Positions 7,924 to 47,241 of a stretch of 64,000 nt of DNA are shown one piece after another. Source of the stretch: Paludibacteraceae bacterium (GTDB taxonomy: Bacteria; Bacteroidota; Bacteroidia; Bacteroidales; Paludibacteraceae); contig JAFTZQ010000017.1 in assembly GCA_017464475.1 (NCBI GenBank), positions 21,853 to 85,852 of the forward strand, read 5' to 3'. A program made the translations under genes and the position numbers. The notes beneath the pieces were generated by a model that had not been told where the DNA came from, did not search any database, and was given only the letters and a program-made list of their open reading frames with translations. Positions within the stretch are counted from its first letter, which is position 1. The number at the start of each line of letters is the position of its first letter.

Positions 7924-8559
7924 ATGTCTAAACAACCTGCAATCATAGTTCCGGAAGGGTGCACAAAAGTGCTGCTGCATGCCTGTTGTGCACCCTGCTC
8001 CAGCGCGATCGTGGAATGGCTGCTGGCTCATCAGATTGAGCCGGTGATCTATTATTTCAATCCGAATATTTATCCACAAGAGGAGTATGAGATCCGTAAA
8101 AACGAGAGCAAGCGGCATGCCGAGAGCTTGGGGATTGAGTGGATTGACGGGGATCGTTGGGCACATGCGGAATGGCTTCGGGCGGTGACGGGTCTGGAAC
8201 ATGAGCCGGAGCGAGGCAGACGATGCGAGGCATGTTTCTACCACCGGCTGTTCTATACCGCGCGGAAAGCGCAAGAGCTGGATATTCCGTTCTTTGCTAC
8301 GACCTTGGCTTCCTCACGATGGAAGAATCTGGATCAAGTGAACGCCGCCGGAAAGCGTGCAGAAGAGATGGTGAACAAATATCCGGCGGACAGCGCAGTC
8401 CACGAGCCGGTGCATTTCTGGGCACAGAATTGGCGCAAAGACGGACTGCAGGAACGACGGAACGAACTACTGAAAGAATACCAATTCTACAACCAGCTTT
8501 ACTGCGGTTGCGAATTCTCCCTTTCTCGTCCCGGTGATGTCATGCTAACAACCCACTAA
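7924..8559 (+). CDS. queH: Epoxyqueuosine reductase QueH (DUF208)
   Basis: Start at Met58 of the track ORF (MSKQPAIIVPEGC...). Cys motifs CCAPCS, RCEACFYHRL and LYCGCEFS. Confidence 0.8.
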   Translation: MSKQPAIIVPEGCTKVLLHACCAPCSSAIVEWLLAHQIEPVIYYFNPNIYPQEEYEIRKNESKRHAESLGIEWIDGDRWAHAEWLRAVTGLEHEPERGRRCEACFYHRLFYTARKAQELDIPFFATTLASSRWKNLDQVNAAGKRAEEMVNKYPADSAVHEPVHFWAQNWRKDGLQERRNELLKEYQFYNQLYCGCEFSLSRPGDVMLTTH

Positions 8560-8593
8560 TCACCCACTAATCACCCACTAATCACCCACTCAT
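8550..8593. repeat. 11 bp tandem repeat CACCCACTAAT x4
   Basis: aacccactaat cacccactaat cacccactaat cacccactcat. The queH stop codon (8557-8559) lies in the first unit. Confidence 0.9.
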
Positions 8594-8611
8594 ATAAGGT
8601 AATTAGAACAT

Positions 8612-8646
8612 AAAAAAGAGTGACATTAAACGTCACTCTTTTTTTG
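8612..8646. terminator. Bidirectional rho-independent terminator between queH and the convergent beta-helix gene
   Basis: A-run, stem agagtgac (8617-8624), loop attaaac, stem gtcactct (8632-8639), then a T-run. Confidence 0.8.
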
Positions 8647-8672
8647 TTTTTGCATATCTATAATCACTTTTT

Positions 8673-10667
8673 TTACCAACCCATTCCGCCACCGGGTCCG
8701 CCTCCGGAGTTACCTCCGGAATAGGAAGAGAGCGTAACGGAGGAGCCTCCGGAAACAGTAGCCGGATAATATCCCACTCCGTCAAAGATGCTTGTTCCCG
8801 AGGCTGTTACGCCGGAAACAAGTGTCGGTGTTGATGCGCCGGAAACGACCATTCCGCTTCCTCCGCTACTCGGTGTCTTGAAAGCAAAGGTGGTGCTGCC
8901 GACCGTTAGGGCATACCATGTGTTGGTGGACCAGGAGCCGCTACTGCTTCCGCCGGGACCACCTCCTGAATTACCACCGGGACCGCCTCCTGAATTACCG
9001 CCGCCGGAAGAGGAGCCTGCGGAATAGCAGCTCTGCGTCAGGCTTGCCCCACTCTCGAGTCCGCCGATAGCAACCAGTGTGCCGCCCTGCACATAGAGTT
9101 TATAGCCGCTCTCGGTATTGGCGTCAATCGCCACCTCGGGCGAAGAAGCACCGATAGCATAGACCAGACCGCCCCTGATATAACAGTTGCCGTTTGCGTC
9201 AATGCCGTCGTTGTTGGTAGCACGGGCATAGACCATTCCGCCGCTGATAGTCAGATGACTTGCTGCATTAATGGCATCATCATACGCCGAAACAGCCACT
9301 TCGCCGCCGGTGATGTCCAGTGTCGATTTGGACTCAATGCCTTCGCCGTTTCTGCCGGAGGTGGTAACATAAATCTTGCCGCCGGAGATAGTGATTGCTC
9401 CGGCTACTTTGATACCTTTAGGCGAGGAATAATAGCTGCTGCTGATATTGTCGGTATTGCCGGTATAGTTCGTATTCTCGGTCGAACCGTTGTTGTAATA
9501 CAGCCCTCCGGTGGTGGTAGCTGTGATGAAAGCGCTGTCGCTGACAGCCAGCGCGCCGTCGCACTTGAGTCCCTTTCCTCCTGAGCCGGTAGCCTTCAGG
9601 GTAAGCGTACCGCCACTGATAGCCATATTGGCATCAGCTGAGAGACCAGCCGCCGCTTTCGTTTCGCTATCATCGCTATCCCACTTGCCCGCGCCGGAGG
9701 TGGTGACATCGAGCGTACCGCCGGTAATATACATGTCTCCAGCACTCTTGATACCCTTTGCAGCTGCCGCCGAGGCAGTGATAGCTACCGTTCCGCCGGA
9801 GATATAGATATTACCGGTATCTTCGTCCTCATGGTCGGTGGTAATACCGGTGGAGGTCGTGCCGCCTAAATCGCATTGGATACCGTCATCGCCGATACCG
9901 GATAGGGTAATCGTGCCGCTCTTGATCTCCATGTACTCCTCGCAGTTGATACCGTCGCCTACAGTCGAGGTGATGTTCAACGTCAGATTCTTGACAGAGA
10001 TATACGACGCAGACTTGATACCATGCTTGGTATTGCCGATTACATTAAGCGTACCGTTACCTTGAATCTGCAGCTGTCCTTTGCTATAGACACACGCTTT
10101 CTGCGAGCCGGAGGCGCAGTCGGTCAGAGTGTTTGTTGTACCGTTCTTGGCGGACAACTGAATACGCTTGGAGTTAGTGATGTTAATCGCCGCTCCGTTC
10201 GGGTTAGTGAGCGTCACACCCGCCAGCGAAACCGTGCATTTGTACGAGCCGGAGAGGGAGAGCGAACCGTTGGAGGAAGTGCCGCTGAGTTGGTACGTAA
10301 TCTCATCGTTGCCCACGGCGTCAGTATTGCTTTGGGCAATAGTGACGTGTGCTCCGCTAAAAGTGGGTGTCACATATTGCGCCACATTACCGGCAACTGT
10401 AACCGTTGCCGACGAACTGCTGTATGCTATGCTCACAAGATTGTCCGTCACTGCCGTTTCATCCACCCACATACTGTCTATCTCGCTGAGAGTGAATGTT
10501 TTGCCCATTGCGGTCAGTGTGGTGCCATCCGAGAAAGGCATTACTCCTGCCTGCGAAGCCGGGAAGAGATAGGTCACATTGCCCACCTGCACGTTGAGAG
10601 TCTGTGCGTCAATGTACAAAGGGACAAAGTACAAAGTACAAAGGATTGCTACTAATATCTTTTTCAT
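8673..10667 (-). CDS. Secreted beta-helix protein, Cthe_2159-like carbohydrate-binding domain family (paralogue A)
   Basis: 664 aa with signal peptide MKKILVAILCTLYFVPLYIDAQ. Repeated GDDGIQ / NDGIDANGN / AIDAN beta-helix rungs and Gly/Pro-rich spacers. The C-terminal half is very similar to the 14671..16347 product. Confidence 0.7.
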   Translation of the reverse strand: MKKILVAILCTLYFVPLYIDAQTLNVQVGNVTYLFPASQAGVMPFSDGTTLTAMGKTFTLSEIDSMWVDETAVTDNLVSIAYSSSSATVTVAGNVAQYVTPTFSGAHVTIAQSNTDAVGNDEITYQLSGTSSNGSLSLSGSYKCTVSLAGVTLTNPNGAAINITNSKRIQLSAKNGTTNTLTDCASGSQKACVYSKGQLQIQGNGTLNVIGNTKHGIKSASYISVKNLTLNITSTVGDGINCEEYMEIKSGTITLSGIGDDGIQCDLGGTTSTGITTDHEDEDTGNIYISGGTVAITASAAAAKGIKSAGDMYITGGTLDVTTSGAGKWDSDDSETKAAAGLSADANMAISGGTLTLKATGSGGKGLKCDGALAVSDSAFITATTTGGLYYNNGSTENTNYTGNTDNISSSYYSSPKGIKVAGAITISGGKIYVTTSGRNGEGIESKSTLDITGGEVAVSAYDDAINAASHLTISGGMVYARATNNDGIDANGNCYIRGGLVYAIGASSPEVAIDANTESGYKLYVQGGTLVAIGGLESGASLTQSCYSAGSSSGGGNSGGGPGGNSGGGPGGSSSGSWSTNTWYALTVGSTTFAFKTPSSGGSGMVVSGASTPTLVSGVTASGTSIFDGVGYYPATVSGGSSVTLSSYSGGNSGGGPGGGMGW
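8953..9000. repeat. 24 bp tandem duplication inside paralogue A (encodes GNSGGGPG x2)
   Basis: ccgggaccacctcctgaattacca / ccgggaccgcctcctgaattaccg read directly. Confidence 0.8.
10614..10644. repeat. GTACAAA-type heptamer run inside the signal-peptide coding region of paralogue A
   Basis: aatgtacaaagggacaaagtacaaagtacaaagg, which encodes LCTLYFVPLY. Confidence 0.7.
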
Positions 10668-11629
10668 TGCTGTATTTCTTTACCTGTTATTGAATATGTT
10701 TTGCCGTTGCGCTCAATGAGCAATATCCCGTTGCGGAGGATTTTGGCAGCTTGCAGTTGTCCGGTTGGCGTTTGGTCAATTGCTGACGTTGCTGCAACAT
10801 TCAGAGAAGCCGCATCAGCCACCGACTGCGTGCCAGCCGCTTTGACTGCTTCGCCGGTCGAGCCGGAGGTATTGATATTGATGGTACCGCCGGTCATGGT
10901 GAAGTTGCCGGTGTTCTCCGCAGATGTGTCATTGGCCTCCAAATCCACCTGAATACCGTCGTCACCGAAACCTGAGAGGTTGATGACTCCGCTCTCCATC
11001 AGGAAATACTGGTTGCAGTTGATGGCATCCTTGACCGCCGAATAGACATTGATCGTGCAGTTCTTCATCTCGATGTACTCTCCAGCTTTGATAGCATGGG
11101 CATAGTTGCCATAGACATTGAGCGTACCCTTTCCTTTGAACTGAATATGTCCTTTGCAGTAGAGCGCGCCCTTCCAAGCGTCCGCAGCAGTCGAAGTGCC
11201 GTCTTTGAGCGTGCTTTCCGTACCGCTCTTGGCACTAATCTCAATACGCTTTCCGTTCTGGATATCTATCGCCGGTCCGGTGGGGTTGGTGATAGAGACG
11301 CCGAAGAGTTCGAGCGTGGCTTTGTATGTGCCGGTAAAAGTGAACGAACCGTCCGTTGTAGTGCCATAGAGACCGTATGAGACCTCGTTGATTGTTGCGG
11401 AGGCAGTAGAAGTGATTGCCACATCGGCTCCGCTGATTTCGGCAGTGATATAATCTTTGATATCCGAAGAGACCTCCACCGCAGCCGAAGAGCCGCTATA
11501 GGTTACTTTGACATAACAGGTTGTGTCGGAGGTATAAGTCACCTGCGCTGAAAGGGACAAAGGAGCAATGTACAATGTACAAAGGGTCAATGCACAGAGT
11601 ACAAAGGTTCGCATGAATGTTCTTTTCAT
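10664..11629 (-). CDS. Secreted beta-helix protein, shorter Cthe_2159-like paralogue B
   Basis: 321 aa with signal peptide. GFGDDGIQVD and ITNPTGPAIDIQNGKRIEISAKSGT match paralogues A and C. The C-terminal tail is KILRNGILLIERNGKTYSITGKEIQQ. ATGA-type 4 nt overlap with paralogue A. Confidence 0.65.
   Translation of the reverse strand: MKRTFMRTFVLCALTLCTLYIAPLSLSAQVTYTSDTTCYVKVTYSGSSAAVEVSSDIKDYITAEISGADVAITSTASATINEVSYGLYGTTTDGSFTFTGTYKATLELFGVSITNPTGPAIDIQNGKRIEISAKSGTESTLKDGTSTAADAWKGALYCKGHIQFKGKGTLNVYGNYAHAIKAGEYIEMKNCTINVYSAVKDAINCNQYFLMESGVINLSGFGDDGIQVDLEANDTSAENTGNFTMTGGTININTSGSTGEAVKAAGTQSVADAASLNVAATSAIDQTPTGQLQAAKILRNGILLIERNGKTYSITGKEIQQ
11553..11607. repeat. Degenerate GTACAAA-type heptamer run inside the signal-peptide coding region of paralogue B
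   Basis: gggacaaaggagcaatgtacaatgtacaaagggtcaatgcacagagtacaaagg, which encodes LCALTLCTLYIAPLSLS. Confidence 0.6.
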
Positions 11630-12030
11630 TTTAGTACGATAGTTTGGGTGTTATTACCTTGTTTAATCACATACGCGCCCGCGGGAAGAGTCCGGGCGGT
11701 TTCGTTGAGGTTTCCGAACGTACCGAGGGATGCGCCGTTGAGCGAGAAGACACTCACAGGCATGTCTGCGTCCAATACATTCTCAATGGCCGTTGCGACA
11801 CTGCCGTCTTGGGAGAACTGCATGCTCGCCAGATCGGTCAGCGTAAAAGAGGTGGTGCCATCGGTGTTTGTCACTTGGAGCGATGAGCCGCTGACGACAA
11901 GCGTCATATCCGAAACGCTCAGTTTCGTTGTTGTTCCTCCTGTGCTGGTGAACACCAGATAGGGATAGTCCGCAGCCTGCGCCGTAATCGCACATAACGC
12001 AGCTGCCCAGATAAACAGACTTCGTTTCAT
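11626..12030 (-). CDS. Small secreted protein with a T9SS-type C-terminal sorting domain
   Basis: 134 aa with signal peptide MKRSLFIWAAALCAITAQA. The C-terminus ...VSVFSLNGASLGTFGNLNETARTLPAGAYVIKQGNNTQTIVLK resembles a Por-secretion tail. Confidence 0.55.
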   Translation of the reverse strand: MKRSLFIWAAALCAITAQAADYPYLVFTSTGGTTTKLSVSDMTLVVSGSSLQVTNTDGTTSFTLTDLASMQFSQDGSVATAIENVLDADMPVSVFSLNGASLGTFGNLNETARTLPAGAYVIKQGNNTQTIVLK

Positions 12031-12075
12031 AACATATAATTTGGGGTTTTACAATAAATTTAACCGGTTAACAAA

Positions 12076-13383
12076 TTACCACACTTCAGCACCGAGAGCG
12101 TTATAGGTCTTGCCGTTTTTCTCAATCAGCACTTGACCGTCACGGATAACTTTTGTGCATTGTACATTGTCACTTTTTACATTCTCCACTCCTGTCCCAT
12201 CTGCATTGATAGTGCCGCTACCGCTGAGCGAAGTGTATGTTAAGGTGTAGCCGTTCTTGTTGATTGTACCGTTGTTCACCAGCGCACAGATAGAGGTGTT
12301 GGCATTCAGCACCCATGTAGCACCGCTGTTGACGGTCACATTTGCCGTGTAGCCTGAGTCGTATTTGACAGTACCGGTATAGGTACCGTTAGCCAAAATC
12401 AGGTTCCCCACGGCACCGGATGTGGACCACTGACTGTCTGCCATGACGTACATCAGCACACCGCTTGGAACGGTCACTGTACAGTTGTCCAGCGTGCAGG
12501 TAGCTGTTACGCAGGTAGCTACTTCCAGCAGCGGTGCACTGCTGTCCGTCATCGTCAGAGATGTGCCGGTGATGGTCATTACCGGATTGACACCCGATGC
12601 GTCGCCGCTGCCGGATTGCATCATCAGCAAACCGCGCTCGGACGAACCGCTGGTCATGGTGCAGTTGGTCATGGTGATACTATTGTCTCCCTCGATCACT
12701 GCTATCTCACCCTTGGCAGAAGTGCCGACGAGGTCAGTGGCAGCCATCGTTCCGGTAGAATAAATCACAGCCGATTTGCTGCCGTTGGCGGTAGCTGTAC
12801 CGCCGTTAACGGTCACGGTTCCGCCGCCACGGTCGGTTGCGATAGTGGATGAGGTGGCTTCATTGGTGGTGATGTCCACATTGGAAGCGGTGATGATACC
12901 GCCATAGGTGGCGTGCAAACCACGGCTGACACTATTCGAATTGACAATAGTGATGCCATCTATCTCTACACTCGCTCCGTTGGTGGCAATCACAGCATTG
13001 GCACCTTGTGCCGTTCCGTTTACAGTAACGTTCTTGATTACAATCTTCGCGCCGCTGGCTGCCGTGGTGCTCTGATAATTGGACGAACTGGCGGCACCGG
13101 CATAAATGGAGGAGTTGTTGCCATAGAATGACGAATTGTCTCCCTGAGAACCGTCGCCGGATTTAGTAATCGTACAACCGTTCATCGTCAGTGTACCGCC
13201 CGTACACTGTATCACATTGTAATACTGGGTGGACGATGAGTAGTCACTGGTAATAGTAGCTGTACCGCTGCTGTGGGTGTATGTGGCACCCTGCGGATAA
13301 GTGGGAGTACTGTCTGCGGGCGGTTGCGCCTGCATGTTAAGCGCCGTCAGTACGGCTGCAGCAAAGAAGAAAATCTTTTTCAT
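12076..13383 (-). CDS. Secreted right-handed beta-helix (pectin-lyase-fold-like) protein
   Basis: Start at Met15 (MKKIFFFAAAVLTALNMQAQ; CAT 13381-13383). Repetitive G/T/S/N-rich rungs (ITIVNSN.., VTVNGGTATANG.., TMTNCTMTSG..). C-terminal tail KVIRDGQVLIEKNGKTYNALGAEVW. Confidence 0.55.
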   Translation of the reverse strand: MKKIFFFAAAVLTALNMQAQPPADSTPTYPQGATYTHSSGTATITSDYSSSTQYYNVIQCTGGTLTMNGCTITKSGDGSQGDNSSFYGNNSSIYAGAASSSNYQSTTAASGAKIVIKNVTVNGTAQGANAVIATNGASVEIDGITIVNSNSVSRGLHATYGGIITASNVDITTNEATSSTIATDRGGGTVTVNGGTATANGSKSAVIYSTGTMAATDLVGTSAKGEIAVIEGDNSITMTNCTMTSGSSERGLLMMQSGSGDASGVNPVMTITGTSLTMTDSSAPLLEVATCVTATCTLDNCTVTVPSGVLMYVMADSQWSTSGAVGNLILANGTYTGTVKYDSGYTANVTVNSGATWVLNANTSICALVNNGTINKNGYTLTYTSLSGSGTINADGTGVENVKSDNVQCTKVIRDGQVLIEKNGKTYNALGAEVW

Positions 13384-13422
13384 GTTGTTTGCTTTTAAAT
13401 GTTTTATTTTCAAAACCGGCTG

Positions 13423-13430
13423 CAAAATTA
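13423..13430 (-). promoter_or_regulatory. -7 box TAatTTTG for the minus-strand beta-helix operon
   Basis: caaaatta on the + strand, 39 nt upstream of ATG 13383. Confidence 0.55.
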
Positions 13431-13604
13431 CTGCTTTTTTCTCATATACGTATTATTTTATCCGTCCCAATTATTAAGAAAAAGACACATCGGCATAATA
13501 ATTCGGAATGGTTACAGGAAGCATAAAGTTAGGTTCTAATGGGGTAAAGGGAGGGATTTATTACGAAAAAGTCGCTTTTTTTTGGAGGAATAAAAAAAAA
13601 GCAG

Positions 13605-13612
13605 TATCTTTG
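13605..13612 (+). promoter_or_regulatory. -7 box TAtcTTTG for the AraC-family gene
   Basis: tatctttg preceded by an A9 tract, 68 nt upstream of ATG 13681. Confidence 0.55.
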
Positions 13613-13680
13613 CACACTTGTTTATTAACAAAAACACTCATTTTTTTATTAGTAAGAACACTCATTTAAGGGAGACTACT

Positions 13681-14547
13681 ATGCAAACCATACCAGAAAA
13701 TAAACACCCGGTCCTGTTTCAGGACCACATCGACCAACAGGGCGTGGTAGTAGTGGAAGTGGGTTCGATGCCGACCGGTGACCGTCCGTTTCAATCGGAG
13801 AATCTGGTTATCGGCGTGTGTCTGGAAGGTTCGGCGGACTTCATGTACGATTTGCAGCCGCGCCGTTTTGAACCGTATGACGTAGGCGTGGTGCTTCCAA
13901 ACCATATCTTCTCCTACAGTTCCGTCTCTCCGGATTACCGCGCCACGCTCATCATCATCTCTCCGTCCATGTACAAGAGTATTATCCACCGCGAGTCATT
14001 TATCGACTACCAGAAATACCACCACCGCCCGGCACTCACCCTGACGGATGAGCAATTCATCAAAGTAAAAGACATCATCCAAGTGATCCGCTATATCAGC
14101 GAATCAGCCCACCCGCGACGCAAAGAGGCACTGGGCAACCTATTAGACATATTGTTTTACGCGCTAACGCGCTATAGGGGCGAGGAGAAAACGGAGAAAG
14201 TAGCCAATACACGAGGCGAACAGCTATTCCGGAATTTCTACGACTTACTGCTTGTTCATTACAACAAGCAGCACACCGCCATCTGGTACGCGGAGCAACT
14301 CAACCTGACAGCCAAATATTTCTCCATTACCATCCAGCGCGCCACGGGCAAGACCCCCAGCGAGTGGATTTCCGAGATGCTGGTGGAGCAAGCCAAGCGT
14401 CTTCTCTCCAACCGTAGAGACATGACCGTACAGCAGGTTGCATACGAGTTGGGATTCAAAGAGAACGCCACATTCTGCTATTTCTTCAAACAGCAGACCG
14501 GATTGCGCCCTTCGGAGTTCAGGAAGAAAAACGGAACAAATTCTTAA
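13681..14547 (+). CDS. AraC-family transcriptional regulator
   Basis: Start at Met22 of the track ORF (MQTIPENKHP...). C-terminal double HTH (TAIWYAEQLNLTAKYFSITIQRATGKTPSEWI...VQQVAYELGFKENATFCYFFKQQTG). Confidence 0.85.
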   Translation: MQTIPENKHPVLFQDHIDQQGVVVVEVGSMPTGDRPFQSENLVIGVCLEGSADFMYDLQPRRFEPYDVGVVLPNHIFSYSSVSPDYRATLIIISPSMYKSIIHRESFIDYQKYHHRPALTLTDEQFIKVKDIIQVIRYISESAHPRRKEALGNLLDILFYALTRYRGEEKTEKVANTRGEQLFRNFYDLLLVHYNKQHTAIWYAEQLNLTAKYFSITIQRATGKTPSEWISEMLVEQAKRLLSNRRDMTVQQVAYELGFKENATFCYFFKQQTGLRPSEFRKKNGTNS

Positions 14548-14608
14548 TATATTTAGCATATTCGTTATGAAAAAGGTATATTTATTTGCTCATTTCGCAA
14601 ATTAAGTG

Positions 14609-14616
14609 TACCTTTG
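14609..14616 (+). promoter_or_regulatory. -7 box TAccTTTG for the paralogue C - VTC operon
   Basis: tacctttg, 54 nt upstream of ATG 14671. Confidence 0.55.
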
Positions 14617-14670
14617 CGCGATTTTTGCAAATTGAAAGACAAAAGTAGAAAGTCAAAAGATAAAAGATAT

Positions 14671-16347
14671 ATGAAAAAGATTTTATGGGTAGTGCTGATG
14701 GCTGTCGGGATGGTAGCCTGCACGGAGTACAATGCGCCTACGAGCAACGGGACGAGCAGCAGTTCCGGCTCGGCAAACGACACCACAGACAATGATGTCA
14801 ACAATCAGGTATGGTCCGACACTCTGTATATCTCATGGAGTGGCAGCAAAGCAACCGTGACCGGCGAGATAGACAGTATAACGGTAACCAACAGCAACGG
14901 CTACGTGACCGTCAACTCCGCCGTGACGCGGCTTGTGACGTATATTTTAAGCGGAAACGGGACAGGACAGATTTCCATTTACGGGAGTATCAAAGAGCAG
15001 ATTGTGCTGAACGGGCTGACGCTGACTTGTTCGGACGGTCCGGCGATCAACAACCAATGCCACAAGAAATGCTATGTGGTAGTGAACGGCACGAACAGCC
15101 TGACGGACGGCAGCAGTTATGCATCTTCTTCAGAAGATCGCAAGGCGGCATTCTTCAGCGAGGGACAGTTGATCTTCTCCGGCAGCGGCAGTCTGACGGT
15201 CCAAGGCAATTACAAGCATGCCATCGCCAGCGACGACTATATCCACCTGACGAGCGAAGCAGGTACGTTTGTGCTGAATGCGGCAAGCGACGGTCTGCAC
15301 GCGAACGACGCGATGTATATCAACGGCGGTAGTACCACCATCACAGCCGGCAGCGACGGCGTACAATGCGACTCGACGATCACTATTGACGGCGGTAAAC
15401 TGACGATCAGTGCAGATGGCGACGGTATCCAGAGCGACACAACTAATATTGTCATCAACGGCGGCGAGATCACCATCAGCAAAGCCGGCGACAAAGGTAT
15501 TGTGGCATTTGGAGACATCACCATCACAGACGGCACGATCCGCGTGAACAGCGAATATAAATGTCTCAAAGCGGGCAAGAAAGAGAACAACACCATAGTG
15601 AGCGCCGGCAGTATCACTATCTCCGGCGGCGATATACAAGCGATTTGCAGCGGAACTTCGTCGTCCGGCGGCAGAGGAGGTTGGTTTGCTCCTCCGAGTG
15701 GCGGCGGTCCCGGTGGTGGCGGTCCCGGTGGCGGCGGCTGGGGAGGCGACAGTTCGTCCGACTCCAGCAGTCCCGAAGCGATCGAAGCCAAAGGTACAAT
15801 CACGATCTCCGGCGGCTATGTCTATGCGCAGTCTTCGGACGATGCGATCAATGCAGGTGGCGATTTCACGGTCAGCGGCGGTTGCGTATGTGCTTACTCG
15901 ACCGGCAATGACGGCATGGACGCCAACGGCAATATGTACATCAAAGGCGGTGTGGTCTATGCTATCGGTTCGTCCAGTCCCGAGATGGCGATCGACGCCA
16001 ATTCGGAAGGCGGCAAGAAACTGTATGTCCAAGGCGGTACTATTGTTGCTATCGGCGGTTTGGAGAGCGGTGCAAGTCTGAGCCAGAGTTGCTATTCCTC
16101 CTCATGGAGCAAGAACACATGGTATGCGCTGACCGTTGGGAACGAGGTCTTCGCTTTCAAGACTCCAAGTAGCGGAGGCACAAGTATGGTTGTGTCCGGC
16201 GCTTCCACCCCCACCCTCAAATCGGGCGTCACCGCGAGCGGAACGGCTATTTTCAACGGCATGGGATATTATCCGGCTACGTACAGCGGCGGTTCGTCCG
16301 TCAGTCTGTCTTCCTATAGCGCTTCGTCCGGCGGCGGAAGATGGTAA
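14671..16347 (+). CDS. Lipoprotein, Cthe_2159-like beta-helix carbohydrate-binding family (paralogue C)
   Basis: Start at Met20 (MKKILWVVLMAVGMVAC lipobox). Motifs SDGLHAN, GDGIQSD, NDGMDANGN and a Gly/Pro spacer PPSGGGPGGGGPGGGGWGG. The C-terminal roughly 200 aa is near-collinear with paralogue A. Confidence 0.7.
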   Translation: MKKILWVVLMAVGMVACTEYNAPTSNGTSSSSGSANDTTDNDVNNQVWSDTLYISWSGSKATVTGEIDSITVTNSNGYVTVNSAVTRLVTYILSGNGTGQISIYGSIKEQIVLNGLTLTCSDGPAINNQCHKKCYVVVNGTNSLTDGSSYASSSEDRKAAFFSEGQLIFSGSGSLTVQGNYKHAIASDDYIHLTSEAGTFVLNAASDGLHANDAMYINGGSTTITAGSDGVQCDSTITIDGGKLTISADGDGIQSDTTNIVINGGEITISKAGDKGIVAFGDITITDGTIRVNSEYKCLKAGKKENNTIVSAGSITISGGDIQAICSGTSSSGGRGGWFAPPSGGGPGGGGPGGGGWGGDSSSDSSSPEAIEAKGTITISGGYVYAQSSDDAINAGGDFTVSGGCVCAYSTGNDGMDANGNMYIKGGVVYAIGSSSPEMAIDANSEGGKKLYVQGGTIVAIGGLESGASLSQSCYSSSWSKNTWYALTVGNEVFAFKTPSSGGTSMVVSGASTPTLKSGVTASGTAIFNGMGYYPATYSGGSSVSLSSYSASSGGGRW

Positions 16348-17150
16348 GAGAAATGAGTTCTGTCGAGAATATATTAACTCAGTTTGAGCCGATCAGTCTG
16401 GCTCAGATGGAGAGCGTCAAGCTAATGAACCGCATAGATACCAAATATGCGGTGCCGCTCTCTTTGCTGCCGGCAATACTGGAAGCGGCGATGGCTGATT
16501 ACTACGTCCAGGAGATCGACGGCAAGCGGATTGCCACATACGACACGATGTATTACGACACCGAGTCGCTGGATATGTATATCCGCCACCACGACCGGCA
16601 ATTGGTGCGCCAGAAGATCCGCGTGCGGCAGTATGTGGACAGCAATCTGACCTTTCTGGAGATCAAACGCAAGAACAACAAAGGTCGCACCAAGAAGAAA
16701 CGGATCGTCGTGCCCGATTTTGCTATCACCGCCGAGACGCCGTCTGTGCTCAAACATAAGAGAAGAGCGGACGAAGAGGTGACCGTAGAGAGTTTCATCA
16801 ATACCAAAAGCCGCTACCGCTGGAGCGACATCAGCCCTCATCTATGGACTAAATTTCAGCGTATTACGCTGGTCAACAAAGCCAAGACCGAGCGGCTGAC
16901 CATAGACATGAATCTTGTCTGGGAAAACGTAGTCAGCGGCGAGAGCAAGACTTTTCCTGAGCTGGTGATTATTGAACTGAAAAGGGATGGTAACGTACCC
17001 AGCCGAATGACGGATATCATGCTGAATCTGCGGGTTAAACCGCTGAAGATCAGTAAGTATTGTATCGGCACTGCACTCACTACTCCCGGGCTTAAACGGA
17101 ACCGATTCAAGAAGAAGATACGGAGTATTGTAAAATTGTTAAACTGTTAA
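16341..17150 (+). CDS. VTC-domain protein (polyphosphate-polymerase-type triphosphate tunnel domain)
   Basis: 269 aa; an alternative start at 16353 (MSSVENIL) avoids overlapping the upstream stop. Basic tunnel-like motifs RIDTKY, RQKIRVRQY, FLEIKRKNNKGRTKK and VIIELKRDG. Confidence 0.7.
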   Translation: MVREMSSVENILTQFEPISLAQMESVKLMNRIDTKYAVPLSLLPAILEAAMADYYVQEIDGKRIATYDTMYYDTESLDMYIRHHDRQLVRQKIRVRQYVDSNLTFLEIKRKNNKGRTKKKRIVVPDFAITAETPSVLKHKRRADEEVTVESFINTKSRYRWSDISPHLWTKFQRITLVNKAKTERLTIDMNLVWENVVSGESKTFPELVIIELKRDGNVPSRMTDIMLNLRVKPLKISKYCIGTALTTPGLKRNRFKKKIRSIVKLLNC

Positions 17151-17160
17151 ATTGTTAGAT

Positions 17161-17916
17161 ATGTTATTTCAAGTTGATTTAGCGAACCCCACGTTGGAGT
17201 TTCTGGAAAACGATCCTTCTATCGCAGAGCGTTTCGGCAGCAGCGATAGTATCTCGTATGTGATGCATTCCTTCGCCGACTGGCTGGGCGTAAGCGAGAA
17301 CCTCATTACCATGCCACTCATGTTTCTGTTTAACCTATTGGTTTCATGGATATTGATCTACGGCGTGTATTACCGCTACAGCCGTCGCCGCGACTATTAT
17401 GTGCAGTTTATGCTTTTCTCGTCCGGCATGTTTCTGCTGCTATGGCTGATGCAGATTTTGGACATCCAGACGGGCTTTGTGCTGGGTCTGTTTGCCATCT
17501 TCGGCATGATCCGTTACCGCACGGAGACCGTGCCAATACGCGAAATGAACTATATGTTCCTTATCATCGCCGTTTCAGTCATTAACTCGCTCAGTCTGAA
17601 AGCCGACGGGCTGGCATGGTATCTGTTGCTGGTTGCCAACCTCATTATGATCAGCATGGCTTGGTTCTTTGAGTTATGGAACGGACATAAACGCGAATCC
17701 ACGAAGATCATTTTGTATGAAAAGATAGAGAATATCAAGCCGGAGAACCGCGCTGCGCTCATTGCGGATCTGGAAGAGCGGACGGGTCTCAAAGTAGTAG
17801 ATGTCGAAATAGGACATATTGACTTTCTGCGCGACGTAGCTTATATCAAAATGACTTACCCGCTGGAGAAAGGCAAAGTGCATAACAGTATTGACCAAAT
17901 AACGAAATTCAAATAA
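17161..17916 (+). CDS. DUF4956-family membrane protein
   Basis: The track ORF starts at TTG 17152; the first ATG is at 17161. Four predicted TM helices, then a soluble C-domain (KIILYEKIENIKPENRAALIADLEERTGLKVVDVEIGHIDFLRD). Confidence 0.6.
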   Translation: MLFQVDLANPTLEFLENDPSIAERFGSSDSISYVMHSFADWLGVSENLITMPLMFLFNLLVSWILIYGVYYRYSRRRDYYVQFMLFSSGMFLLLWLMQILDIQTGFVLGLFAIFGMIRYRTETVPIREMNYMFLIIAVSVINSLSLKADGLAWYLLLVANLIMISMAWFFELWNGHKRESTKIILYEKIENIKPENRAALIADLEERTGLKVVDVEIGHIDFLRDVAYIKMTYPLEKGKVHNSIDQITKFK

Positions 17917-17919
17917 CGA

Positions 17920-18792
17920 ATGAAACGATTTCTCCCGATATTACTCCTTATTATGTTTAGCACAGGCGCACGCGCGTGGAACTACAGCGAGACGATGAAC
18001 TCGACCTCTCATAGCGCACAGTTGCGTCTGGGAGCGGATGTACATTGGAGATGGAAGAGCGGTTTGGGTTTATCGCTCGATGAGGACCTGCGGTTCGACA
18101 TGGTTAATTCAACGAGTCTGGAGACTACAGCAGGCACGACCAAGACGCTTTTAGGTCCCGATTTCAACAAGTCGTACACCACCCTCACGCTGAGTTACAA
18201 GCACCCGCAGTTCACTTATCTGAAGGCGGACGCAGGCTACGCACTCAAGCTAATGAAAAAAGATACTACGGCGGTGGAGAAGATCATGCGCCACCGTGTG
18301 TTCTTCGGTCTTACCGGCAGTTACCGGTATGAGAATTGGTCATTCTCACTTCGTGAGCGCTTCATGACGGAGATCCGGATGGGCGATATAGACTACCATG
18401 CCGCAACCGGCTGCTATGAGCACAACCGCGCAGACTGGTATCTGCGGAGCAAGATCGAAGTGGCATACCACGCCGTGAGTAAACCGGTGAAGCCGTATAT
18501 CTGGTGCGAGTTAGTCAACACACTGAATGCCAATGCATTGCAGCAATATTATGCAGGCAATAATCCTGCCAACGGCGGACATCAGTATATTCGCCGCGTG
18601 CGCACTTGCATCGGCGTAGTATGGCGGCTCACCAGACGCAGTTCGCTCGATTTCTACTATCGTTTTAACTACGGCTACGACCGCGATATCAATGTCAAGC
18701 CGAAGAAACAGACGATCATTCTGACTGAGGAACGCAGTTTCCAGCACGCCATCGGCATTGCTTATTCGTTTAACGCCAGCCCGGATAGATAA
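17920..18792 (+). CDS. Predicted outer-membrane beta-barrel protein, function unknown
   Basis: 290 aa with signal peptide MKRFLPILLLIMFSTGARA. Alternating hydrophobic/aromatic strand pattern, and a near-C-terminal AIGIAYSF motif. Confidence 0.45.
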   Translation: MKRFLPILLLIMFSTGARAWNYSETMNSTSHSAQLRLGADVHWRWKSGLGLSLDEDLRFDMVNSTSLETTAGTTKTLLGPDFNKSYTTLTLSYKHPQFTYLKADAGYALKLMKKDTTAVEKIMRHRVFFGLTGSYRYENWSFSLRERFMTEIRMGDIDYHAATGCYEHNRADWYLRSKIEVAYHAVSKPVKPYIWCELVNTLNANALQQYYAGNNPANGGHQYIRRVRTCIGVVWRLTRRSSLDFYYRFNYGYDRDINVKPKKQTIILTEERSFQHAIGIAYSFNASPDR

Positions 18793-18794
18793 TT

Positions 18795-19223
18795 ATGAAA
18801 AGGACAATATATTTTTTGGTATGCCTGCTGATAAGCAGTGCAGCCATGGCTCAGAGCCTGTTGACGCCTGAGCAATTAGCCAAACGTGAGAAGCGCAAGA
18901 ATCTCACCGTCAAAGAATGGAATACCGATTCCAAGACCAAGACGCGCTGGCTGGACCACGTGAAAGTATATGACGCGCAAGGACGCTGCATCGAGGAGAT
19001 CGAGTATGCCTCGTACGGTCAGCGCAGTCGCGTGACAAGCAAGTATGACGATGTGACCGGCAAGGTAGTGGAAGAGGTTGAATACAACGACCGGAACAAA
19101 CCAGTCCGTATCCGCAAATACGAATGGAACGCGGACGGCACCAAGGCGAAGCAATACAACTATCTGCCGAACGGCAAACTATTCTCCGTCAAAGTATTCG
19201 AATACATCTTCAGCGATAAATAA
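18795..19223 (+). CDS. Small secreted protein, function unknown
   Basis: 142 aa with signal peptide MKRTIYFLVCLLISSAAMAQ. Repeated ..YD..G..VEE(I/V)EY.. segments. Confidence 0.45.
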   Translation: MKRTIYFLVCLLISSAAMAQSLLTPEQLAKREKRKNLTVKEWNTDSKTKTRWLDHVKVYDAQGRCIEEIEYASYGQRSRVTSKYDDVTGKVVEEVEYNDRNKPVRIRKYEWNADGTKAKQYNYLPNGKLFSVKVFEYIFSDK

Positions 19224-19237
19224 ATCGTTTATTACAG

Positions 19238-19267
19238 AAAGAGCCGCACATCGCTGTGCGGCTCTTT
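19238..19267. terminator. Bidirectional rho-independent terminator
   Basis: aaagagccgcaca / tcgc / tgtgcggctcttt: a 13 bp perfect stem with flanking A and T runs, lying between convergent genes. Confidence 0.85.
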
Positions 19268-19295
19268 CCTTTTTCCATTCATTTTCATCCTTCCA

Positions 19296-21452
19296 TTACT
19301 CCTCCTCGCTCTGGGTAGCAGCATAAGCAGCGAGCAGTTTCTCCTGTACGTCTGCCGGAACAAGTTGGTATGAATTGAAGCTCATGGTGAAGGTAGCGCG
19401 ACCTCCGGTGAGAGACGAGAGCGTCGTGGAATAGGAAGCCAGCTCTTTCAGAGGCACTTGCGCTTTGAGGCGGGTGAAGCTCTTCTCTGTCTCCATACCC
19501 ATTACCATACCGCGACGGCCGTTGATGTCGGACATTACATCACCCATGATCTCCGACGGAACAAATACCTCGAGGTCATAAACCGGCTCCAGCACTTTCG
19601 GGTTCGCCTCTTTGAAGGCTTGCGCGAAGGCATTACGTCCGGCGAGACGGAACGAGATTTCGTTGGAGTCAACCGGGTGCATCTTACCGTCATAAATAAT
19701 GACGCGCACGTCGCGGGCGTACGAACCGGTCAGAGGACCTTGCTCCATACGATCCATGATACCCTTTACGATAGCCGGGATGAAGCGTGCGTCGATAGCA
19801 CCACCGACGATGGAGTTGATGATGATCAGCTTACCACCCCACTCCAAGTTGATTTCCTGCTGGTCCTTAACGGAAACTTTGTATTCCTGGTTGCCGAACT
19901 TGTAGGTCTCTTTTACAGGCACGCCTTCCTCATACGGCTCTACGATGAGGTGCACCTCGCCGAACTGACCGGCTCCACCGGACTGTTTCTTATGGCGATA
20001 GTCGGCACGCGCAGCCTTCGTGATCGTCTCGCGGTACGGGATACGCGGTTCGCTGAACTCGATCGGCATCTTGTCGTTGTTCTCCAGACGCCATTTGAGC
20101 GTACGGAGGTGGAACTCACCCTGACCGGAAACGATCATCTGGCGGAGCTCTTTGGATTGCTCAACGATCCATGTCGGATCCTCCTCGTGGTAACGGGTCA
20201 GAAGTGCTGCCAGTTTCTCTGCGTCGGATTCGGTAACCGGCTTGATAGCACGGCGGTAACGCGGCTGCGGATAGTTGATCGGAGCGTACTGCAGGTCGCA
20301 GTCCTTTGCGTTCAGGGTGTTGCCCGTACGAGTGTCTTTCAGTTTCACAGTAGCACCGATATCTCCTGCTGCCAGTTCATCTACCGGCACGCGGATTGAA
20401 CCTGCCACCTGGTAGAGCTGCGAAATACGCTCTTTCGAACCGCGCTCCATATTCTGCAGGTCGTCGCCGTTGTGAACGGTACCTTGCATTACGCGGAAAT
20501 AGTTCACTTCGCCAATATGCGGTTCCACGGAAGTCTTGAAGACGTAGAGGCTGGTAGAAGCAGCAGCGTCCGGGCTGATTTTCTTGCCGTCAACGGTAGG
20601 ATAGCTGAACTGAGAAGGACTCGGAGCCATTCCGTTGAGGAAATCCATCAGACGGCGGACACCCATATCTTTCAGACCCGAGCAGCAGATCACCGGATAC
20701 ATCGACCCGTCTGCATAAACGGATTTGAGTCCCTGCATGATCTCTTCGTCGGTCAGACCTTCACCGAGGAACTTATCCAGCAGCGTCTCATCAGCCTCTG
20801 CAGCCGCTTCGGAGAGTTGCGAACGCATCTCCTCAACACGGTCTGCGTACTCAGCAGGAATATCCTTGAGTTCAGGTGCACCACCTTCTGCCTTCCACAC
20901 CAGCATCTTTCCCTTGAGGACATCAATGACTGCATTGAAGCCTGCTCCGGCGTTCACCGGGAACTGAATCAAAGTACATTTATTGCCAAAGTTCTCTTTC
21001 AGTTGGTTAAACGTGCGATCGAAGTCTGCGTCTTGGTGATCGCATTTGTTGATGACGAAAGCCAGCGGCTTTTTAGCATGCTCCACGAGACGGAAGTTAT
21101 TCTGGGTTCCGACCTCTACTCCGCCGTTAGCGGAGAGAACGATGAGCGCTGAACCGCACATCTGCAGCGCAGCCACGGTACCGCCGCAGAAATCGTCACT
21201 ACCTGCGCAGTCAATGATGTTCAGTTTCTTGCCCTCAAACTCGATGTTACAAACCGTAGAGAAGACCGAATAGCCGTACTCTTTCTCAACCGGGAAATAA
21301 TCGCACACGGTGGATTGCGCTTCAATCGTACCGCGGCGTTTGATCACCCCGCTCTCGAACAACATCGACTCCATAAGGGTCGTTTTACCGGATCCCGAAC
21401 CGCCCAACATAGCGACGTTCTTGATCTCATTTGCTTGATAAACTTTAGCCAT
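19296..21452 (-). CDS. Elongation factor G family GTPase (divergent paralogue)
   Basis: 718 aa. P-loop GGSGSGKT, DCAG, NKCD, and full five-domain EF-G length with a conserved C-terminal region. Confidence 0.8.
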   Translation of the reverse strand: MAKVYQANEIKNVAMLGGSGSGKTTLMESMLFESGVIKRRGTIEAQSTVCDYFPVEKEYGYSVFSTVCNIEFEGKKLNIIDCAGSDDFCGGTVAALQMCGSALIVLSANGGVEVGTQNNFRLVEHAKKPLAFVINKCDHQDADFDRTFNQLKENFGNKCTLIQFPVNAGAGFNAVIDVLKGKMLVWKAEGGAPELKDIPAEYADRVEEMRSQLSEAAAEADETLLDKFLGEGLTDEEIMQGLKSVYADGSMYPVICCSGLKDMGVRRLMDFLNGMAPSPSQFSYPTVDGKKISPDAAASTSLYVFKTSVEPHIGEVNYFRVMQGTVHNGDDLQNMERGSKERISQLYQVAGSIRVPVDELAAGDIGATVKLKDTRTGNTLNAKDCDLQYAPINYPQPRYRRAIKPVTESDAEKLAALLTRYHEEDPTWIVEQSKELRQMIVSGQGEFHLRTLKWRLENNDKMPIEFSEPRIPYRETITKAARADYRHKKQSGGAGQFGEVHLIVEPYEEGVPVKETYKFGNQEYKVSVKDQQEINLEWGGKLIIINSIVGGAIDARFIPAIVKGIMDRMEQGPLTGSYARDVRVIIYDGKMHPVDSNEISFRLAGRNAFAQAFKEANPKVLEPVYDLEVFVPSEIMGDVMSDINGRRGMVMGMETEKSFTRLKAQVPLKELASYSTTLSSLTGGRATFTMSFNSYQLVPADVQEKLLAAYAATQSEEE

Positions 21453-35451: not shown

Positions 35452-36131
35452 AACTGAATACGAACAGTAATCTTTATACCTTCATCTATTCAGCGGTGAT
35501 GGTAATCATCGTAGCTGTGCTCTTGGCGGTAGTTAGCCAGGCACTCGCTCCGAAGCAGCAGGCGAACATCCTGCTCGACAAGCAGAAACAGATCCTCGGT
35601 GCGCTGAAGGTGGACTACTCCGCCGGCAACCCCGCAGAGATATACATGGTGCTCGTGAACGACACCCTCACTTACGGCGACAAAGAGGTTTACGTAGCCG
35701 ACCTGAATGGCGAGACCAAATATATCCTGCCGCTTAGCGGAAAAGGTCTTTGGGGCGGCATCGGCGGTTACCTCGCACTCGATGCAGACAAGAACACCAT
35801 TTATGGTGTCAACTTCAACCACGAGTCCGAGACCCCGGGTCTGGGCGCCAAGATCGTAGAACTGCCGTTCCGTGAGCAGTTTGAGGGCAAGCACATCCGC
35901 AATGCGGCTAACGAAGTCGTTTCCGTGGCTGTGCTCAAAGCCGGCAAACATGCCGACGGACAGGAGCAGGTAGATGCCATCTCCGGTGCTACCATCACCT
36001 CCTCCGGCGTCAGCACGATGCTCGAAGTGAACCTCGCAGAGTATGCAGAGTTCCTCAAATGTGAAAATGAGAAAATGAGTAAATGTGAAAATGAAGGAAA
36101 GGAGGAAGACCATGTTGAGTCAGAAAACTAA
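35448..36131 (+). CDS. nqrC: Na+-NQR subunit C, with a repeat-encoded C-terminal extension
   Basis: 227 aa. FMN site ISGATITSSGV. The tail [24 protein letters not shown] overlaps the nqrD start. Confidence 0.9.
   Translation: MKLNTNSNLYTFIYSAVMVIIVAVLLAVVSQALAPKQQANILLDKQKQILGALKVDYSAGNPAEIYMVLVNDTLTYGDKEVYVADLNGETKYILPLSGKGLWGGIGGYLALDADKNTIYGVNFNHESETPGLGAKIVELPFREQFEGKHIRNAANEVVSVAVLKAGKHADGQEQVDAISGATITSSGVSTMLEVNLAEYAEFLKCENEKMSKCENEGKEEDHVESEN
36058..36098. repeat. Imperfect tandem repeat (AAATGTGAAAATGA type) forming the nqrC 3' extension
   Basis: aaatgtgaaaatgagaaaatgagtaaatgtgaaaatgaagg read directly. Confidence 0.7.
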
Positions 36132-36729: not shown

Positions 36730-36730
36730 T

Positions 36731-47223: not shown

Positions 47224-47241
47224 ACCCTCGGACGCTTTGTG

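Follow-up and report, generated by a model that had tools for sequence, protein, structure and literature searches.

Why would a rumen bacterium keep a relative of the yeast polyphosphate polymerase in one cluster with a membrane protein, an outer-membrane (OM) barrel and several secreted beta-helix proteins? The question is raised by ten genes at positions 8673-19223 of a 64,000-nucleotide stretch of contig JAFTZQ010000017.1 (assembly GCA_017464475.1), hereafter the window, whose source organism is a rumen member of the Paludibacteraceae (Bacteroidales). All ten open reading frames (ORFs) were confirmed by ORF calling. NCBI records identical genes and proteins in a Paludibacteraceae metagenome-assembled genome (MBQ8939517-26), naming the three Cthe_2159 genes 'carbohydrate-binding domain-containing' and the rest 'hypothetical'. 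We propose, at slightly less than an even chance, that the cluster encodes a prokaryotic VTC-like polyphosphate synthase with a DUF4956 protein as its membrane partner, extended across the Gram-negative envelope. The observations behind this proposal are family membership, conservation of the Vtc4 tunnel residues, synteny, localisation signals, a barrel fold and a pattern of charge. A first-pass annotation made from the DNA alone had described the region as a candidate uncharacterised cell-envelope system, and its claim of a conserved system is borne out by family assignments with hidden Markov models (HMMs) and by recurring gene neighbourhoods.

The VTC-domain protein (269 amino acids; 16341..17150, plus strand) matches PF09359 at 5.3e-32, with 111.7 bits against a 23-bit cut-off, over profile positions 1-233 of 235, and has no CYTH match at E-values up to 10. 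Like every Pfam assignment in the cluster (Cthe_2159 three times, VTC, DUF4956, DUF2490, HTH_18 and AraC_binding), this match exceeds the gathering score; the families named at first pass, namely Cthe_2159, VTC, DUF4956, AraC and an OM barrel (here DUF2490), were thus all recovered. The protein, predicted to be cytoplasmic, has an isoelectric point (pI) of 9.9 and carries neither a signal peptide nor a transmembrane (TM) segment. NCBI gives its homologues the product name 'polyphosphate polymerase domain-containing'.

How closely does it resemble Vtc4? Searched as a single sequence against the PDB with phmmer, it returned noise only. When 37 bacterial sequences sharing 36-49% identity with the window protein were combined in a profile, it matched the catalytic domain of yeast Vtc4 (3g3q) at 6e-5 and that of Vtc2 (3g3o) at 2.4e-4. 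Invariant among the 37 sequences, in window numbering, are R31, K35, R94, R96, E107, K109, K119, R121, E212, K214, S238 and K239, whose Vtc4 equivalents are, in the same order, R196, K200, R264, R266, E279, K281, K294, R296, E426, K428, S457 and K458; residues were mapped by sequence alignment only, with the offset between Vtc4 chain and residue numbering anchored on E426. Several of these positions have been singled out in Vtc4 itself: R264A/R266A/E426N is the inactive form used for cryo-electron microscopy (PMC9911596), and K458 has been termed catalytic (PMC4641920). What sets hydrolytic triphosphate tunnel metalloenzymes (TTMs) apart from Vtc4 is an acidic patch for binding a second metal (PMC4641920). 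The N-terminal motif reads R-x-D-x-K in the window protein, R-x-T-x-K in Vtc4 and E-x-E-x-K in the hydrolases. As aligned, two positions are Vtc4-like, with Arg31 occupying the first position of ExExK and Lys214 lying two residues past the putative metal-binding Glu (E212-x-K214, corresponding to E426-x-K428), and one is not, Asp33 being an acidic residue that Vtc4 lacks. These data support a Vtc4-like active site in the bacterial VTC proteins and make the window protein a candidate polyphosphate polymerase. The first-pass annotation had spoken of a 'polyphosphate-polymerase-type enzyme'; the family holds, while the wording, which treated the activity as established, was a minor overstatement.

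The family is large. A search at E-values up to 1e-3 gave 3,944 clusters at 50% identity, and a separate search gave more than 7,600 clusters at 90% identity among the matches listed. The longer representatives contain no informative natural fusions, only low-complexity inserts. One 193-amino-acid metagenomic protein (P0129) joins the N-terminal half of a VTC protein, 84% identical, to the C-terminal end of the 142-amino-acid protein described below; it looks like a deletion of the C-terminal part of VTC, DUF4956, DUF2490 and the start of the small gene, and represents natural loss or else an artefact of assembly.

Directly downstream lies the gene for the DUF4956 membrane protein (17152..17916, plus strand; probable start ATG 17161), which matches PF16316 at 1e-46 (159 bits) and whose homologues NCBI names 'DUF4956 domain-containing'. 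The AlphaFold2 (AF2) model predicts about five helices at residues 49-179 plus a C-terminal domain of beta-alpha-beta-beta-beta order. Foldseek found no significant match for this domain (E at least 0.27), the matches being mostly ACT domains. A motif, G-L-F-A-I-F-x3-R-Y-R-T-E ... R-E-M-t-Y, is kept by the family across phyla, and by the positive-inside rule its basic RYRTE/REM part is predicted to lie at the cytoplasmic face. The DUF4956 profile matched no chain in the PDB, which we assume to hold the VTC complex structures. The window protein has no MgtC match, and a Paenibacillus homologue, the best case, reached an E-value of 1.7, which is not significant. The Streptococcus intermedius homologue SIR_1592 has been described as an MgtC-like TM region plus an ACT domain (PMC12345266).

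Are these genes neighbours by chance? We scanned one genome per species with a 10-sequence VTC alignment as query and obtained 80 loci, Bacteroidales only, whose ORFs were called and searched by phmmer and by iterated HMMs built from the window proteins; the denominators below are the loci with enough flanking DNA. The loci span Paludibacteraceae, Rikenellaceae, Alistipes, Prevotella and other Prevotellaceae, Muribaculaceae and Bacteroidaceae. DUF4956 stands directly downstream of VTC in 76 of 77 loci, and DUF2490 is adjacent to the pair in 72 of 75. The 142-amino-acid protein adjoins this core, usually directly upstream of VTC, in 42/69; 27/58 have Cthe_2159 genes at most about 5 kb from VTC, and the 134-amino-acid protein is nearby in 6/58. 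Beyond these, no gene family was shared by more than five of the 80 Bacteroidales operons; those found at five loci or fewer are a DUF3413-sulfatase, a CarboxypepD_reg protein and chance neighbours. The DUF3413-sulfatase membrane protein follows the core in a Paludibacteraceae subgroup (L023, L036-L038, L040 and L049; occurrence counted at five loci), and its domain combination presumably resembles that of phospho-alcohol transferases such as LtaS, EptA and OpgB. In one Rikenellaceae locus a BACON-CotH protein follows DUF2490.

The gene order within the Bacteroidales is itself informative. In L001, from a relative whose VTC protein is 84% identical to that of the window, all ten genes stand together in one co-directional operon with the AraC gene divergent, in an order different from that of the window: AraC, then proteins of 433 and 133 amino acids, Cthe_2159 proteins of 310 and 641, VTC, DUF4956, DUF2490, a Cthe_2159 protein of 506 and the 142-amino-acid protein. 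A divergent AraC gene likewise heads the single-operon version in L006. Another relative has only VTC-DUF4956-DUF2490-142 aa. Set side by side, the full set of L001 and the four genes of this relative indicate a core of VTC-DUF4956-DUF2490, with or without the 142-amino-acid protein, and a frequent accessory layer of beta-helix proteins. In Bacteroides thetaiotaomicron, BT3498-99 are annotated as DUF4956 and DUF2490 (PMC10434189), and the system appears to be present in that species.

Outside the Bacteroidota we used tblastn against plasmid and mis-filed chromosome records and inspected eight loci from Deinococcota, Alphaproteobacteria and Bacillota, in all eight of which VTC and DUF4956 are adjacent. 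The partners vary: Deinococcus taeanensis has CotH-VTC-DUF4956; Pseudobutyrivibrio xylanivorans the same three genes within a glycan-synthesis cluster; Planococcus maritimus VTC-DUF4956-CotH-689 aa-HEAT-glycosyltransferase, a cassette that is the same as NELoc-2 of Clostridium perfringens; Enterococcus faecalis VTC-DUF4956-two-component system-CotH; Paenibacillus cellulosilyticus a two-component system and then VTC-DUF4956-Cthe_2159; and Acetoanaerobium noterae a two-component system, then VTC-DUF4956 and a phospholipase D (PLD)-like enzyme. The last of these (L095:8525-10081), directly after the pair, contains PLDc_N and two PLD domains and is cardiolipin-synthase-like. In Nitratireductor and Aminobacter (L087, L088), genes for an extracytoplasmic function (ECF) sigma factor with its anti-sigma factor and for an S8 peptidase precede DUF4956-VTC, which is followed by a phosphate transporter and/or a phytase-like esterase; in these Alphaproteobacteria the order of the pair is reversed and the context is phosphate metabolism. 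CotH thus stands beside the pair in four of the eight loci. The first-pass annotation had pointed to such co-occurrence, and we found CotH in Deinococcus, Pseudobutyrivibrio, Planococcus, Enterococcus and the Rikenellaceae locus, and Cthe_2159 with the pair outside the Bacteroidota in Paenibacillus cellulosilyticus. Since the adjacency recurs across 80 Bacteroidales species genomes and in other phyla, it is neither unique to this genome nor fortuitous. The variable partners (CotH, Cthe_2159, phytase-like esterase, PLD-like enzyme, DUF2490, BACON-CotH and the genes of published Pel loci) are, on our reading of their annotations, typically secreted or membrane-bound, which suggests that the product of the pair is used outside the cytoplasm.

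What does the Bacteroidales version add? The DUF2490 protein (290 amino acids; 17920..18792, plus strand) matches PF10677 at 4.5e-13 (49.8 bits against a 29.8-bit cut-off), has a signal peptide and a mature pI of 9.4, and is modelled by AF2 with a pLDDT of 93.4 as an all-beta barrel of 11 DSSP strands. Foldseek relates it to generic OM barrels only, with NanC, KdgM, FapF and OpcA at probability 1.0 and TM-scores of at most 0.41, and in TCDB the family figures only as a putative porin (1.B.81). The best Foldseek E-values belong to the 19-stranded VDAC and Tom40, at very low TM-scores. Eleven is an odd number of strands, and the barrel may have 11 or 12; short and long connections alternate in the model, so that the C-terminus would be periplasmic and strand 1 would start outside. 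Lumen-facing residues were assigned by strand parity, taking the non-hydrophobic parity. At the lumen parity stand 12 basic residues conserved to at least 91% (R36, R58, K84, K102, R124, R126, R145, R147, R176, K191, R228 and R248) and four conserved acidic residues (D104, E197, D256 and E271).

The accessory layer is built mainly around Cthe_2159. Three proteins match PF14262: one of 664 amino acids (8673..10667, minus strand) at 4.4e-58, a short one of 321 (10664..11629, minus strand) at 1.2e-37, and one of 558 (14671..16347, plus strand; the ORF opens at 14614) at 8.2e-56. In the 664-amino-acid protein the signal peptide ends AQ, the mature pI is 4.5 and the C-terminal tail, rich in Gly and Pro, closes with GMGW. 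This protein is a paralogue of the 558-amino-acid protein (39% identity over 600 amino acids), and the 321-amino-acid protein corresponds to its N-terminal half (39% identity over 311). By inspection of the N-termini, the 558-amino-acid protein is a lipoprotein, its signal peptide ending ...GMVAC; six other proteins of the cluster have ordinary signal peptides and the VTC protein has none. The lipoprotein has a mature pI of 4.5 and a Gly-rich tail ending GGGRW, matches the Cthe_2159 crystal structure (4peu/4phb) at 2e-13, and has orthologues directly upstream of the core genes in many loci. A Gly/Pro-rich tail (GGGPGGG...) with RW, GW, WH or RR as its last residues is the usual C-terminus of Cthe_2159 proteins adjacent to VTC; we saw it in the window (8673-8760 and 16270-16347), L001, L007-L017, L041-L060 and L091, and the Paenibacillus protein ends GGGGGGRGRGG. 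The C-terminal parts of the 664- and 558-amino-acid genes (9021-9213 and 15906-16098) share 79% nucleotide identity over 194 nucleotides and 72% over a further 206, which, beside 39% overall for the proteins, points to gene conversion or to a later duplication of this part. As for the founding member, Cthe_2159 of Clostridium thermocellum, a secondary source describes a beta-helix resembling polysaccharide lyase family 9 (PL9) that binds cellulose and polygalacturonic acid.

A further secreted protein of 435 amino acids (12076..13383, minus strand; a TTG-extended ORF reaches 13425) is rich in Thr, Asn and Gly and has beta-helix-like repeats. Pfam, NCBIfam and the PDB yielded no match for it, its relation to the Cthe_2159 family by hhalign is weak (72% probability over 54 columns), and orthologues occur in L001, L006 and L061. 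We rejected it as a Cthe_2159 paralogue; what it has in common with the 321-amino-acid protein is only a C-terminal tail of about 36 amino acids. This tail of some 30-36 residues (10664-10760 and 12076-12180) follows the pattern QSxK[VI][IL]RDGQ[VI][LV]IE[KR]xxK[TK]YNxxGAE[IV], is restricted to orthologues of these two proteins among the 6,015 ORFs of 85 loci, and is not recognised as a domain of the type IX secretion system (T9SS). It may be a cluster-specific sorting or docking signal. The founding Cthe_2159 protein reportedly binds Ca2+ and is said to lack lyase activity.

Two small secreted proteins complete the set. The first, of 134 amino acids (11626..12030, minus strand), has a mature pI of 4.1, a mature 'cargo' of only about 50 amino acids and a C-terminal tail resembling the T9SS type-A domain. 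The window protein reaches 8.9e-4 and 19.2 bits against TIGR04183, below the 23-bit cut-off, while seven of ten family members match it (best E 4.6e-8), and the T9SS tail claimed at first pass is probable at the level of the family and below threshold in the window protein taken alone. Six other loci have its orthologue immediately upstream of Cthe_2159 genes. The 134-amino-acid protein is not of the beta-helix type, and the count of five beta-helix paralogues proposed earlier must therefore be corrected to three Cthe_2159 members, with the 435-amino-acid protein beta-helix-like only. The second, of 142 amino acids (18795..19223, plus strand), has a signal peptide, a mature pI of 9.3 (family median 9.1), beta-hairpin-type repeats and weak DUF2963 and MORN_2-like matches. 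Overall, the VTC protein (pI 9.9), the 142-amino-acid protein (9.3) and the barrel (9.4) are basic, and the five surface or secreted proteins lie at 4.1-4.8, a charge pattern that, as calculated from sequence, is compatible with a path for a polyanion.

How might these proteins work together? From the above we infer that the VTC protein is a polymerase, that DUF4956 translocates its product and DUF2490 lets it pass, that the beta-helix proteins bind polyphosphate, and that the flow is outward. The cytoplasmic VTC protein would polymerise polyphosphate from nucleoside triphosphate in its basic tunnel, working on, or tethered to, the inner-membrane DUF4956 protein with its basic RYRTE/REM motif and small, possibly regulatory, C-terminal domain. 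Through DUF4956 the chain, or its phosphoryl groups, would reach the periplasmic side. The Bacteroidales route would continue via the basic 142-amino-acid protein, presumably periplasmic, and the DUF2490 barrel, whose putative lumen-facing positions are rich in invariant Arg and Lys. At the surface, the acidic Cthe_2159 proteins, one a lipoprotein and two secreted, would hold or use the polyanion, captured through Ca2+ bridges, with the T9SS-tagged partner alongside. The AraC regulator would control both operons.

Several points weigh against this proposal. We know of no enzymatic or transport activity for any bacterial member, and we see neither an SPX domain nor an equivalent sensor. At the position of Vtc4 Thr198, which is Glu in the hydrolases, the bacterial family invariably has Asp (Asp33). 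AtTTM3, whose tunnel is near-identical, is a hydrolase and does not polymerise (PMC4641920), so conservation of the tunnel falls short of proving polymerase activity. DUF4956 has no detectable similarity to the Vtc1/Vtc4 TM channel, and its AF2 model is poor (pLDDT 61) because only homologues of more than 82% identity were supplied; as modelled, TM helices and an ACT-like domain would suit an MgtC-type regulator or anchor no less than a channel. For the barrel, a 2026 preprint reports a buried network of two Arg, two Glu and a Tyr in 238 of 2,789 DUF2490 models, and the lumen may accordingly be closed. Cthe_2159 is present in only 27 of the 58 loci that could be scored, and the surface beta-helix proteins are acidic, so that direct binding of polyphosphate would need cation bridging. 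In favour of the proposal, the ten genes stay together despite rearrangement, as in L001.

Could the flow run the other way? The beta-helix proteins and the barrel might take up phosphate or phosphate polymers, with VTC-DUF4956 making membrane-associated polyphosphate inside the cell. A lumen lined with basic residues would be equally suited to anion uptake; NanC and KdgM, the closest in fold, are porins that take up acidic oligosaccharides; and in Nitratireductor and Aminobacter an inorganic phosphate transporter and/or the phytase-like esterase comes after the pair. Yet the Gram-positive partners are CotH kinases and exopolysaccharide genes rather than uptake systems, none of the 80 Bacteroidales operons contains a gene for a periplasmic phosphatase, Pst or PiT, and in the classical view storage of polyphosphate in bacteria requires PPK only, with no membrane partner; we consider this direction unlikely. 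Similarly improbable in our view is that the VTC protein is a TTM that hydrolyses or senses triphosphate at the membrane, with an MgtC-like/ACT DUF4956 relaying the signal to the envelope, and that the envelope genes are its regulated clients. The residues that set Vtc4 apart from hydrolases (the equivalents of R196, K428 and catalytic K458) are invariant, Pfam assigns VTC and not CYTH, similarity to MgtC is not significant (best E 1.7), and a dedicated OM barrel next to the pair in 72 of 75 loci is unexpected for a regulator. What speaks for such a relay is that Asp33 is invariant at a position acidic in TTM hydrolases, that the weak Foldseek matches of the DUF4956 C-terminal domain are mostly ACT, that genes for two-component systems, ECF sigma factors or AraC regulators are never far away, and that the S. 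intermedius homologue has been described as 'MgtC-like TM plus ACT domain' (PMC12345266).

What, then, of the secreted enzymes themselves? VTC-DUF4956 might be an accessory module that supplies an extracytoplasmic phosphoryl donor to CotH and perhaps to the PL9-like Cthe_2159 proteins, in which case the end product would be a modified matrix and not free polyphosphate. CotH adjoins the pair in four of the eight loci outside the Bacteroidota and in the Rikenellaceae locus; the pair lies inside a glycan-synthesis cluster in Pseudobutyrivibrio and near glycosyltransferases in Planococcus and C. perfringens, and it adjoins pel loci, with an effect on Pel levels. We nevertheless give this version a small share of belief; the window cluster has no glycosyltransferase or polysaccharide-synthesis gene, none recurring in the Bacteroidales operons either; for Cthe_2159, to our knowledge, no enzymatic activity is known. 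It still needs exported polyphosphate and is therefore a refinement of our proposal, not an alternative to it. That beta-helix proteins binding plant cell walls in a rumen fibre degrader merely lie beside an independent VTC operon is, finally, very improbable. The organism is indeed a rumen Paludibacteraceae, NCBI names the three genes 'carbohydrate-binding', some relatives carry the core without Cthe_2159, and the founding protein, according to a secondary source, binds cellulose and polygalacturonate. Against this, Cthe_2159 genes are found no more than about 5 kb from VTC in 27/58 Bacteroidales species and immediately follow VTC-DUF4956 in Paenibacillus, the genes are interleaved in different orders, as in L001, and the cluster lacks CAZyme (carbohydrate-active enzyme) or SusC/SusD genes.

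Taking our proposal of an envelope-spanning VTC-DUF4956 system further, bacteria may have a widespread third route to polyphosphate, in which free-standing VTC polymerases and DUF4956 would place the polymer outside the cytoplasmic membrane. The Bacteroidales would then possess a full trans-envelope apparatus for its secretion and display, in which a basic protein would carry it through the periplasm, an anion-lined DUF2490 barrel would pass it outwards and beta-helix proteins would act as Ca-dependent receptors; in other phyla the polymer would serve CotH as an extracellular phosphoryl donor, and the 'eukaryotic' VTC would be of bacterial origin. We offer this wider view tentatively and regard it, as a whole, as possible and rather doubtful.

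How is the cluster expressed? Motif searches found Bacteroidetes-type -7 promoter motifs upstream of the minus operon (TAATTTTG, 13423..13430, minus strand), the AraC gene (TATCTTTG, 13605..13612, plus strand) and the plus operon (TACCTTTG, 14609..14616, plus strand), and we therefore propose three transcription units. The consensus TAnnTTTG occurs four times in 453 nucleotides of intergenic DNA, both strands counted, against a chance expectation of about 0.2 by our own estimate. Genes overlap by 4 nucleotides in the minus operon and are spaced from -7 to +3 nucleotides in the plus operon, confirming the close packing reported at first pass. The AraC-family gene (13681..14547, plus strand; ORF 13618-14547, likely ATG 13681) lies between the two divergent structural operons, as first described; its product has HTH_18 (1.8e-20) and AraC_binding (1e-5) matches in Pfam and a cupin-like ligand-binding N-terminal domain. 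In its leader, between promoter motif and ATG, an exact direct repeat, AACACTCATTT, occurs twice with starts 24 nucleotides apart (13633..13667, plus strand), with no further exact copies in the 64-kb window, and may be an autoregulatory operator of the AraC gene. Motif searches found AACACTCATTT absent upstream of both structural operons and no operator motif common to their promoter regions.

Both ends of the region are marked by terminator-like hairpins. That at the end of the minus operon (8612..8646, no strand assigned) has a 13-bp stem, AAAAAAGAGTGAC...GTCACTCTTTTTTT, with an A-tract and a T-tract, and doubles as a terminator for the convergent queH gene; that at the end of the plus operon (19237..19268, plus strand) has a 14-bp stem with 8 GC pairs and a T-tract on the plus-strand side only. 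Two bidirectional terminators had been claimed; both hairpins are there, and the bidirectional character holds for the first and not for the second. Between the queH stop codon and the first hairpin, an 11-nucleotide repeat, CCCACTAATCA, stands in about three tandem copies (8555-8590). The flanking genes are housekeeping, with NadE (NAD synthase) and QueH on one side and elongation factor G and serine hydroxymethyltransferase on the other. Rfam detected no RNA in window positions 8000-20000, and no PADLOC defence-system model matched any of the ten proteins. A polysaccharide utilisation locus was considered and rejected, with no SusC/SusD or CAZyme match among the ten proteins or the flanking genes. 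The 64-kb window contains no ppk, ppx or pst genes, and elsewhere (32903-39316, 40237-42042, 46063-50006 and 54946-56433) it resembles ordinary chromosome, with an Nqr operon, a BspA-type leucine-rich-repeat surface protein, a cluster for imelysin, a di-haem oxidoreductase and cytochrome-c assembly, HipA, and capsule-type sugar transferase and epimerase genes.

How much of this was known? Earlier work had noticed the VTC-DUF4956 pair, and in one Gram-positive species deletion phenotypes are on record for two genes. Genes for cotH, a 'polyphosphate polymerase', DUF4956 and DUF4832 adjoin Gram-positive pel loci (PMC7112168), and deleting the DUF4956 and CotH genes of S. intermedius lowers Pel levels and aggregation, without a mechanism being given (PMC12345266). 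In the literature searched, DUF4956 and VTC were not found combined as terms, the NCBI product name turned up in one paper only, and for the set as a whole there are only genomic notes and these deletion phenotypes, in keeping with the first-pass statement that it has no defined function. The Bacteroidales version is undescribed in the literature searched beyond one row of a transcriptome table (PMC10434189); its additions are an OM barrel, a small basic periplasmic protein, a Cthe_2159 lipoprotein with secreted paralogues, and a T9SS-tagged partner.

Why does this matter? PPK1 and PPK2 are credited with making bacterial polyphosphate, and VTC is taught, and in reviews still treated, as a eukaryote-type enzyme (PMC12526157). 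This cluster and its thousands of relatives suggest a bacterial VTC-type system with a membrane partner of its own. If its product leaves the cytoplasm, the system would be a possible source of the extracellular or surface polyphosphate of gut and rumen bacteria, would offer an extracellular phosphoryl donor to secreted CotH kinases, and would give roles to DUF4956, DUF2490, Cthe_2159 and the 142-amino-acid family. Its apparent presence in the genetically tractable B. thetaiotaomicron makes the hypothesis directly testable.

How does the cluster compare with known systems? PPK1 and PPK2, with the same proposed product, have unrelated folds; both are soluble or peripheral and lack membrane or envelope partners dedicated to them. 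The 12-stranded porins KdgM and NanC, which serve acidic oligosaccharides, are like DUF2490 small monomeric OM barrels and are among its best fold matches (probability 1.0), and basic residues run in tracks along their lumen, as parity suggests for DUF2490; the TM-scores, however, are 0.36-0.37 on the query, there is no family relationship, and the DUF2490 model has 11 DSSP strands. Three window proteins are clear members of the family of C. thermocellum Cthe_2159 (4peu/4phb), one of whose ligands, polygalacturonic acid according to the secondary source, is a linear polyanion; unlike it, they are tied genomically to VTC-DUF4956 and carry lipoprotein or other secretion signals and Gly-rich C-terminal tails. 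The Gram-positive pel accessory genes, cotH-polyphosphate polymerase-DUF4956(-DUF4832), and NELoc-2 of C. perfringens contain the same VTC-DUF4956 pair and share a tie to secreted proteins or matrix functions. The window cluster lacks CotH, DUF4832 and pel and has instead the Cthe_2159 paralogues, the OM barrel, the small basic periplasmic protein and the T9SS-tagged protein, extras that match a diderm envelope and are not described in the literature searched.

The closest comparison is with the eukaryotic VTC complex (yeast Vtc4/Vtc1/Vtc2-3). The differences are clear: the bacterial enzyme is free-standing, at about 260 amino acids, with neither SPX nor fused TM helices and with Asp33 for Thr198; its partner DUF4956 is unrelated in sequence to the Vtc1-type (DUF202) channel; and the proposed target is the periplasm or cell surface, not the vacuole, with envelope components that the yeast complex does not have. 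The likenesses lie in the enzyme and its pairing, for the catalytic family in Pfam is the same, a remote homology to the Vtc4 domain is detectable, the tunnel residues are kept, and in both systems the catalytic protein is always paired with a membrane protein.

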